This document shows, in pieces, positions 27,711 through 28,092 of a stretch of 64,000 nucleotides of DNA. The position numbers and the translations under genes were made by a program. Each line of letters begins with the position of its first letter. The first letter of the stretch is position 1. Origin of the DNA: a virus. Location of the stretch: positions 33,707 through 97,706 of IMG/VR virus record IMGVR_UViG_3300045988_134682, one strand, 5' to 3'. Below the pieces are notes generated by a model. That model was given only the letters and a program-made list of their open reading frames with translations. It had not been told where the DNA came from and searched no databases.

Positions 27711-27740
27711 AGGAGGACAATAGTCCTCCTTTGATTTTTT
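27711..27740 (+). terminator. rho-independent terminator
   Basis: aggaggac/gtcctcct stem followed by T6. Confidence 0.7.
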
Positions 27741-27759
27741 ATTAAAAATATAATATAAT
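27731..27759 (+). promoter_or_regulatory. conserved-family promoter (archetype)
   Basis: ttgatt 27731-27736, 17-nt spacer, tataat 27754-27759, then atatatagaaaattaaggaaggtg. Confidence 0.6.
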
Positions 27760-27789
27760 ATATATAGAAAATTAAGGAAGGTGTTTTTT

Positions 27790-28092
27790 ATGAGAGTTTA
27801 TATTTATGCAACTGAAGGTACTTATCAAGGGCTGCATGGAATCTATAATTGTCAAGTCGTAGATGTAAATGATATTGAAGAAGCCAATGATTATGGCTAT
27901 GAAATGGCTTATAATGTTGCTGAATCTTTTGGGTTAAATGATGAAGATGAAACTGTTGAGCAGGAATATAATTGGATTATTTATTCTATTAAAGATTCTG
28001 TTAAAGAAACAGCAGATGAACTTGATGTAATTTGTGCGAGAATGGGCTTTGAAACTTTTATAGATAAATATTGTGATGAAAGGTTAGACTAA
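27790..28092 (+). CDS. hypothetical acidic protein
   Basis: ATG 27790 follows RBS aaggaaggtg. The ORF-track GTG start at 27781 is less likely. Confidence 0.45.
   Translation: MRVYIYATEGTYQGLHGIYNCQVVDVNDIEEANDYGYEMAYNVAESFGLNDEDETVEQEYNWIIYSIKDSVKETADELDVICARMGFETFIDKYCDERLD

Follow-up and report, generated by a model that had tools for sequence, protein, structure and literature searches.

A recurrent promoter cassette in a large uncultivated phage and its probable recognition by the host housekeeping RNA polymerase

The locus at position 27731 of the viral DNA analyzed here raises the question of which polymerase would read a promoter that a phage repeats many times, with conservation extending well beyond the two hexamers. 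The DNA in question, referred to as the window, is a stretch of 64,000 nucleotides (nt) corresponding to positions 33,707 to 97,706 of the IMG/VR virus record IMGVR_UViG_3300045988_134682. A preliminary description had pointed to about 20 cassettes in this window, near-identical copies as well as variants, each with a −35 and a −10 element, an exact 17-nt spacer and a conserved leader, and had suggested that they are recognized by a phage factor. We find that the cassettes recur as described in most respects, and that they are very probably strong promoters read by the host housekeeping sigma-70/sigmaA RNA polymerase (RNAP), each fused to a leader with a Shine-Dalgarno (SD) sequence.

Recurrence and conservation of the cassette

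The focal copy consists of the −35 hexamer TTGATT (27731–27736), the 17-nt spacer ttttattaaaaatataa, the −10 hexamer TATAAT (27754–27759) and then atatatAGAAAATTAAGGAAGGTGttttttATG, with a predicted +1 at A27766, the SD sequence AAGGAAGGTG at 27774–27783 and an ATG at 27790. Both strands of the window were searched with the regular expression TTGA[CT]N-N17-TATAAT, and spacers of 15, 16, 18, and 19 nt were tried as well. The 17-nt pattern gives 23 sites on the + strand and 0 on the − strand, and the other four spacers give 0 matches on either strand, which bears out the exact spacing claimed before. Adding a TTGCTT variant at 1296 brings the set to 24 sites, from which we removed those at 38065 and 43990, as they lie inside open reading frames (ORFs), score poorly on a matrix trained on the phage family (described below) and are probably chance matches. 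The remaining 22 cassettes include all 19 of the positions in the preliminary description, among them the focal copy, with two coordinates slightly corrected (21249 to 21250 and 37693 to 37682), as well as copies at 1296, 1983, and 25973 that it had missed. The consensus string that it gave finds 0 matches even at 3 mismatches, as it omits part of the spacer.

The resemblance among the copies is well above background. The corrected 37-mer, with the spacer complete, has 6 matches at ≤3 mismatches in the window and 0 in 100 dinucleotide shuffles. Over 52 nt, from the −35 to about +17, the 11 copies with no G at −14 (hereafter TG-less) have a mean pairwise identity of 0.77 (maximum 0.92) and the 11 copies with this G (hereafter TGn) one of 0.59 (maximum 0.75), as compared to a mean of 0.28 (maximum 0.44) for control intergenic segments. 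The term “near-identical” is too strong for these values, which in both groups lie far above the controls.

The −10 is a perfect TATAAT and the spacer exactly 17 nt in all 22 copies, and the −35 is mostly TTGATT, otherwise TTGACA, TTGACT, or TTGATA (TTGCTT at 1296), with TTG invariant. The previously noted conservation beyond the hexamers is real when positions are counted over the 22 copies. The spacer has a T-run directly after the −35 and an A-run in its middle, and toward its end, with one base left before TATAAT, it reads T (18/22), A (17/22), T at −15 (22/22) and G at −14 (11/22). The −10 is followed by ATATAT, position −1 is T in 21 of 22 copies, and the predicted start, seven nt after the −10, is A in 19 and otherwise G. 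Past +1 come AA and then the purine-rich SD sequence, and upstream of the −35 no clear A-tract UP element is found among the 22 copies.

The sites are also regularly placed. All 24 are on the coding strand, and 22 of them fall between genes, in some cases with an overlap confined to the final codons of the preceding gene. At 17 sites the −10 ends 12–51 nt before the next start codon, and two further copies (1296 and 1983) precede tRNA genes.

To place the cassettes in a wider context, we used a family set of 239 related phage loci (4.1 Mb), in which the 17-nt pattern has 867 sites on the gene strand and 58 on the opposite strand, and the other spacers have 6–45. The consensus architecture of 153 sites from diverged relatives is the same as that of the window, and the commonest tetramers before the −10 are TATG and TTTG family-wide. 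A matrix built from 591 sites of distant relatives only gives 21 window sites a score of at least 19.7, followed by a gap. In most relatives at 55–75% protein identity, a consensus promoter is kept 29–47 nt upstream of the DNA polymerase start, with its spacer and leader sequences turned over. Nine cassettes compared with their orthologues in four close relatives show 30 differences in 1872 positions (1.6%), as compared to 5.8 and 4.7% in the 200 nt to either side, a sign that the full 52 nt are under strong purifying selection. Concerted evolution among the copies was considered and rejected, since orthologous cassettes retain their own copy-specific peculiarities among these relatives. The exclusive use of the sense strand, the strict spacer, the intergenic placement, the short and fixed spacing from start codons or tRNA genes, the recurrence across the family and the purifying selection together give strong support to the earlier reading of these elements as promoters.

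Host polymerase, phage factor, or chance

The kind of polymerase can be approached through the positions that are conserved in addition to the hexamers. For native sigma-70-type promoters, Kuo et al. (PMC12641261) describe TRTG as common in Firmicutes, an AT-tract adjoining the −35, a start site centered 7 bp past the −10 with a Y(−1)R(+1) start element, a discriminator that is AG- or AT-rich in Terrabacteria (the clade with Firmicutes), and an initial transcribed region that is AG-rich in Firmicutes. Each extra conserved position of the cassettes maps to one of these holoenzyme contacts or Firmicute features, so that a phage recognition factor is unnecessary and the extra conservation is better understood as optimal contact with the host holoenzyme. 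There is precedent for this among large phages: the “uber” early promoters of T4 carry extra consensus and are read by unmodified host RNAP (PMC2988021), and the host-takeover genes of SPO1 have promoters and ribosome-binding sites (RBSs) typical of highly expressed genes (PMC6873191).

Under recognition by the host enzyme, sigma region 4 would bind TTGAYW, the exact 17-bp AT-rich spacer would set the phasing of the hexamers, sigma region 3.0 would, in roughly half of the copies, read the T-R-T-G just before TATAAT, and sigma region 2 would melt TATAAT. The AT-only discriminator would ease opening, and the first transcribed base would be an A or G, seven nt past the −10 and preceded by T. With each promoter fused to a purine-rich leader of 15–45 nt containing the SD sequence, the cassettes would divide the early and middle part of the phage genome into same-strand operons of about 1–4 kb and would also drive the tRNA genes.

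Two other explanations have to be weighed against this one. The cassettes could have arisen simply from the AT-richness and low complexity of the intergenic DNA, or could match a loose consensus by chance, an idea that gains some substance from the genome GC of only 32% and from a generic 9-of-12 promoter scanner, which finds about as many sites in the window as in shuffles (100 vs. 94.5 and 112 vs. 97.6). Since the DNA is AT-rich and the scanner's sites match the shuffles in number, this scanner is uninformative here. The strict matches are divided 23 to 0 by strand and by spacer and are absent from shuffles, the controls are 28% identical where the cassettes are 59–77% identical, the family-matrix scores are bimodal, and the cassettes diverge three times more slowly than their flanks, all of which leaves chance with a negligible probability.

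The suggestion of a phage-encoded factor (a sigma, an RNAP, or an activator) that reads the spacer, the +1 or the leader has in its favor that the conservation past the hexamers is real, that the whole 52-nt unit is under purifying selection, and that two leader motifs keep a constant register relative to the −10 throughout the family (38 of the 41 occurrences of AGAAARTTAA begin at +1, and 24 of the 25 of TAAGATAAAG at +2). These leader motifs are purine-rich and overlap the SD sequence, however, and translation together with promoter escape explains them. The motif itself corresponds to the textbook consensus of housekeeping promoters, down to the strict 17-nt spacer, and its extra positions all match the contacts and Firmicute features listed above (PMC12641261). 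No sigma or RNAP domain (Pfam/PHROG) is found in the about 70 proteins of the 64-kb window, and early promoters must act before phage proteins are synthesized, unless the factor is injected. The promoters of known phage sigma factors and phage RNAPs (SPO1 gp28, T7, phiKZ) differ from the host consensus, which is a further count against this explanation. With these points in mind, we give a dedicated phage factor only a very slim chance.

Recognition by the host sigmaA enzyme also has observations that weigh against it. The −35 is mostly TTGATT and not TTGACA, and the copies at 13468, 1983, and 29490 have a hairpin directly downstream instead of a gene, which a promoter-plus-RBS unit does not explain. 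The sigma/RNAP screen spans only 64 kb of a genome of ~195 kb, and the contigs scanned from metagenome-assembled genome (MAG) bins of relatives contain no usable host genome, so that the comparison with host promoters is indirect. Finally, the PurA/PurZ-like gene downstream of the focal cassette raises the possibility of modified DNA, which could alter the way in which RNAP reads AT-rich elements.

Terminators, sub-classes, and recombination

The preliminary description placed most copies immediately after an intrinsic terminator. This is true of six (13969, 17198, 18878, 24644, 27731, and 51334), where strong hairpins with a free energy (dG) of −14 to −27 kcal/mol abut or overlap the −35, their ends falling from 5 nt ahead of its first base to 2 nt beyond it. 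Two more copies have a terminator at some distance, 34 nt upstream of 37682 (hairpin 37617–37648) and about 97 nt upstream of 33336, and the statement does not hold for the majority. At 51334 the −35, TTGACT, is itself part of the descending stem of the terminator at 51307–51341. Between 13 and 33 kb, five of the six strong + strand terminators are directly followed by a cassette, and in the family set an abutting hairpin is found at 217 of 696 distinct sites. The 8 nt after TTGA contain 5.73 T on average at the sites with a hairpin (217) and 4.95 at those without (479; Mann-Whitney p = 1e-10), which suggests that the T-tract partly reflects a dual role as terminator and promoter. Where an operon ends just upstream, the TTGATTTTTT run would thus serve both as the U-tail of the terminator and as the −35 with the proximal spacer.

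The TG-less and TGn copies are also separated by position. None of the 11 TG-less copies lies beyond 30 kb, and 8 of the 11 TGn copies are found past 33 kb (hypergeometric p about 5e-4), the TGn copies outside the replication region being the two tRNA promoters and the copy at 13468. In the TG-less cassettes the spacer is nearly the same throughout, the start is ATATATAG and the leader motifs are fixed; these cassettes lie upstream of RNA-repair and anti-defense accessory genes, whereas the TGn cassettes lie upstream of replication and tRNA genes. Family-wide, the fraction of sites with TG is 0.74 in the polymerase-centered loci, 0.40 in the RNA-ligase-centered loci and 0.52 around the Ro-like gene. 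TGn promoters resist an anti-sigma that blocks −35 recognition (PMC2988021), so that a temporal distinction between the two sub-classes is conceivable. A more ambitious proposal is that the sub-classes constitute a built-in temporal switch, in which an AsiA-like phage protein that disables sigma region 4 would shut off the strictly −35-dependent TG-less promoters and spare the TGn promoters, combined with recombination of the kind discussed below for T4 PeSLs. We consider this combined scheme unlikely; if true, phages of Gram-positive-type hosts would gain their first system of this kind.

Read on the − strand, the TG-less cassettes themselves give a TTAACT-17-TATAAT-like sequence (18894–18922, 122–150, 13985–14013, and 27747–27775). 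The corresponding − strand matches to the matrix (18922, 150, 14013, and 27775) were considered as antisense promoters and dismissed, as they merely mirror the quasi-palindrome of the TG-less cassettes and no gene lies on the − strand. This antisense quasi-palindrome is probably incidental.

A role of the cassettes in recombination seems plausible. They could be, in addition to promoters, portable linkers resembling the PeSLs of T4, in which ~50 nt of shared homology allow modules to be inserted, deleted and swapped, shaping the mosaic accessory region. In the close relatives L162 and L163, a promoter and tRNA module of ~950 nt lies between two cassette copies, where L161 has a single hybrid cassette composed of the 5' part of the left copy and the 3' part of the right copy, which places the crossover in the interval from the −10 to about +10. 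All six close relatives become homologous to the window again precisely at the −35 of 13969, past a window-specific segment of 8–9 kb, the end of a 1.4-kb insert in L160 coincides with a −35, and the replacement in one relative, a mosaic junction, ends 16 nt upstream of 21250. It also fits that the TG-less copies, 77% identical over 52 nt, are located in the variable RNA-repair and accessory region.

The tally of insertion/deletion (indel) events is less favorable to such linkers. Only 4 of about 17 distinct events (a hand tally) touch a cassette, comprising one clear two-copy/hybrid case and three one-sided junctions. The 5 of 34 boundaries that fall at cassettes do not exceed what the intergenic null predicts (cassettes make up an estimated 17% or so of intergenic DNA), and no enrichment of junctions over this null can be demonstrated among the about 17 events in close relatives. 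Selection against promoter disruption alone would put viable junctions just upstream of cassettes, the indels of the replication region are insertions of the homing-endonuclease type that are unrelated to cassettes, and the copies keep individual differences with no sign of frequent conversion. We therefore put the linker role forward tentatively, with more doubt than confidence.

Genomic setting and comparison with known systems

The individual copies and their surroundings are collected in Table 1.

Table 1. Cassettes of the window and the focal terminator. Score is the match to the matrix trained on 591 sites of distant relatives only.
Feature	Position	Strand	Context	Score
Focal cassette	27731–27792	+	Would drive a 100-amino-acid ORF, then the PurA/PurZ-like gene 28094–29272	40.3
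Focal terminator hairpin, AAAGGAGGAC..GTCCTCCTTT	27709–27732	+	U-tail is the focal −35 and T-tract; dG −16.1	
Cassette, no TG, leader TAAGATAAAG	103–154	+	Upstream of AAA ATPase ORF 169–1287	35.7
Cassette, TTGCTT, TGn	1296–1347	+	Upstream of tRNA-Leu 1489–1571	33.1
Cassette, TGn, leader AGAAAGTTAA then weak hairpin	1983–2034	+	Upstream of tRNA-Gly 2091–2163	39.4
Cassette directly after tRNA-Cys	3113–3164	+	215 nt untranslated, then ORF 3358–4881 (phrog_850 RNA-binding protein)	38.7
Cassette, perfect TTGACA-17-TGgTATAAT	13468–13519	+	End of window-specific insert	19.7
Cassette	13969–14020	+	Upstream of PARG/macro ORF 14031–14840; hairpin 13916–13962 before	41.1
Cassette	17198–17249	+	Upstream of nucleotidyltransferase ORF 17259–18080; terminator hairpin 17166–17195 abuts	40.2
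Cassette	18878–18929	+	Upstream of ORF 18940–19122 and RNase T-like gene; hairpin 18843–18881 overlaps TTG	40.3
Cassette	21250–21301	+	Upstream of RNA ligase gene (to 22492)	31.0
Cassette	24644–24695	+	Upstream of ORF 24709–24870; hairpin 24618–24646 overlaps TTG	36.5
Cassette, TTGATA	25973–26024	+	Upstream of small ORF 26022 and ORF 26171–26782	30.8
Cassette, first of tandem pair	29490–29541	+	−35 in last codons of ORF 29276–29503; no ORF follows	39.1
Cassette, second of tandem pair	29582–29633	+	Upstream of ORF with ATG 29647	36.8
Cassette, TGn	33336–33387	+	Upstream of ORF 33394–33852	28.1
Cassette, TGn	37682–37733	+	Upstream of topoisomerase II large subunit gene 37761–39659	23.7
Cassette, TGn	45459–45510	+	Overlaps ligase gene end; upstream of ORF 45522–45716	26.6
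Cassette, TGn	45713–45764	+	Upstream of ORF 45815–46090	25.8
Cassette, TGn	48679–48730	+	Upstream of winged-helix protein ORF (to 49102)	32.5
Cassette, TGn, −35 TTGACT	51334–51385	+	Upstream of ORF 51397 and DnaB-like gene	24.8
Cassette, TGn	57285–57336	+	Upstream of ORF 57334–57642 and SF1 helicase gene	32.1
Cassette, TGn, TTGACA	59657–59708	+	Upstream of DNA polymerase III alpha-like gene 59728	31.4

The window has a GC content of 32%, a positive GC skew throughout and every plausible gene on the + strand. IMG/VR contigs of 188–196 kb encode a DNA polymerase 98–99% identical to that of the window, which points to an uncultivated phage of ~195 kb. A megablast search of 20 kb against cultured phages gives no DNA-level match, and the closest cultured DNA polymerases, those of Enterococcus VRE9-type phages and SPbeta, reach only 40–42% protein identity. 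The MAG bins in which relatives are found are Bacilli, “Mollicutes,” Erysipelotrichaceae, and Gemmiger only, and a scan of their genome contigs finds all of them phage-like; these bins weakly suggest a low-GC Bacillota host. In one close relative (L001, 14976–17949, just past the equivalent of the window end) there are genes for the anaerobic ribonucleotide reductase NrdD/NrdG, guanylate kinase, dUTPase, and a RuvC-like resolvase, which would fit an anaerobic host. No strict cassette is found in that relative in the roughly 12 kb past the polymerase promoter.

Four tRNA genes lie at 1.4–3.1 kb, and a tRNA-like T-arm fragment is seen near 1400–1425. The region from 14 to 31 kb is a dense set of RNA-repair and anti-defense genes (14031–31000), with PARG and macro domains, a Thg1-like tRNA-His guanylyltransferase, a nucleotidyltransferase, a cREC_REC cyclic-phosphate domain, DUF5662, an RNase T-like protein, an RNA ligase, YqeY, the PurA/PurZ-like protein, three metallophosphoesterases, an AAA_33 kinase and an HD protein resembling (p)ppApp hydrolase. 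Replication genes occupy 34–62 kb and encode PhoH/PIN, topoisomerase II subunits, NAD ligase, RNase H, a DnaB-like protein, a primase-like protein, RecJ, an SF1 helicase and a DnaE-like polymerase. No structural genes are found among the gene products downstream of cassettes, which belong to RNA repair, anti-defense, nucleotide metabolism, and replication. The PurA/PurZ-like ORF (28094–29272) matches a PHROG annotated as PurZ, of the 2-aminoadenine pathway. The idea of a Z-genome was dropped as unsupported, since the best PDB matches of this protein are ordinary PurA (E about 1e-4) and the HD protein is closer to a (p)ppApp hydrolase than to DatZ.

The window-specific segment at ~4900–13968, of 8–9 kb and with a lower GC of 0.26–0.28, is represented in relatives by 1.6–3.9 kb of other DNA and contains no cassette. 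It encodes a collagen-like protein, a BspA-type leucine-rich repeat (LRR) protein with 69-nt tandem repeats (8084–9460), a Stealth/GT2 glycosyltransferase and a GDP-mannose dehydratase-cupin fusion, and looks like surface-glycan cargo. The DnaE-like polymerase gene (59728–64000) is interrupted by a 1064-bp insertion (61875–62938) that encodes a GIY-YIG homing endonuclease (ORF 62099–62824) and is missing in 12 of 12 close relatives, where the gene is a single ORF of 1308 amino acids. Other relatives have different insertions at the equivalents of window positions 56012, 57855, 61066, and 63321 (w56012, w57855, w61066, and w63321).

Several stretches next to cassettes contain no evident gene. 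Between the promoter at 3113 and the 507-amino-acid “RNA-binding protein” (phrog_850) there are 215 untranslated nt (3142–3357), which could encode a partner non-coding RNA. The copy at 13468 is directly followed by a 20-bp hairpin and T-run (13503–13556); its transcripts would end after about 50 nt, as a small RNA or an attenuator, or else the hairpin would terminate the operon upstream, and the promoter would be nested ahead of this hairpin. The tandem copies at 29490 and 29582 are 92 nt apart and identical from the −35 to about +1, and the leader of the former folds into a hairpin (29535–29559) with no ORF and no T-run, so that it may be a degenerate copy or give rise to a short RNA. Rfam at the gathering threshold reports only the four tRNAs in the window, with nothing at 3142–3357 or at the hairpins after 13468 and 29490. 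About 500 nt without a convincing ORF (32817–33335) separate the terminator at 32793–32816 from the promoter at 33336, and a second terminator-like hairpin (33212–33239) lies inside them.

Among known systems, the cassettes share with Firmicute sigma-70/sigmaA promoters that have TRTG the TTGACA-like −35, the 17-nt spacer, TATAAT, TRTG, the AT-rich discriminator, Y(−1)R(+1) and the AG-rich start (PMC12641261). As compared to cellular sigmaA promoters they are far nearer to the consensus, with a perfect TATAAT and an exact 17-nt spacer in 22 of 22 copies, and they differ in a −35 that is mostly TTGATT with a T-run and in the lack of the G of TG in half of the window copies. With the T4 “uber” early promoters and the SPO1 host-takeover promoters they have in common the large number of near-consensus host-RNAP promoters, the extra conserved positions and the strong RBSs (PMC2988021; PMC6873191). 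In these large phages, too, each early promoter heads a short operon of small early genes, often separated by terminators. The early promoters of T5 share this large-lytic-phage design. The cassettes of the window depart from T4, SPO1, and T5 in belonging to a different, uncultivated lineage, in having no clear A-tract UP element, and in heading replication and tRNA genes as well, spread over 60 kb or more instead of being gathered in a single terminal module.

The likeness to the T4 PeSLs lies in a stem-loop directly upstream of an early-type promoter and SD sequence, repeated in a variable region, and in a module between two copies that corresponds to a single hybrid copy in another genome (PMC2839356, PMC4122927). 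A stem-loop is part of each PeSL and of only 6–8 of the 22 cassettes (217 of 696 in the family), and the stems here are not of the conserved GGGG..CCCC type. The host is of Gram-positive type and the phage is not T4-like. PeSL mini-circles are excised during infection (PMC2839356). The indel junctions at the cassettes show no demonstrable enrichment over the intergenic null. Promoters of a phage sigma or RNAP are distinguished by a distinct motif together with the phage gene; here the motif is the housekeeping consensus, and no such gene is found among the about 70 window proteins.

Strong host-type promoter cassettes are ordinary for large lytic phages, and it is the phage lineage that is new and the kind of promoter that is well known. 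The consensus (TTGAYW, a T-rich then A-rich 17-nt spacer ending in TRTGn, TATAAT, ATATAT, and A+1) provides a ready operon map for a large, abundant, uncultivated family of ~100–200 kb rumen and gut phages, and the cassettes would be compact and presumably very strong promoter-RBS parts for low-GC Bacillota. The promoter type is also indirect evidence that infection starts with the host sigmaA polymerase and that the host is of Firmicute type. Little is added by this to what is familiar from T4, T5, and SPO1; only the possible tiers with and without TG and the PeSL-like crossover would extend these known principles to a new group of phages and hosts.

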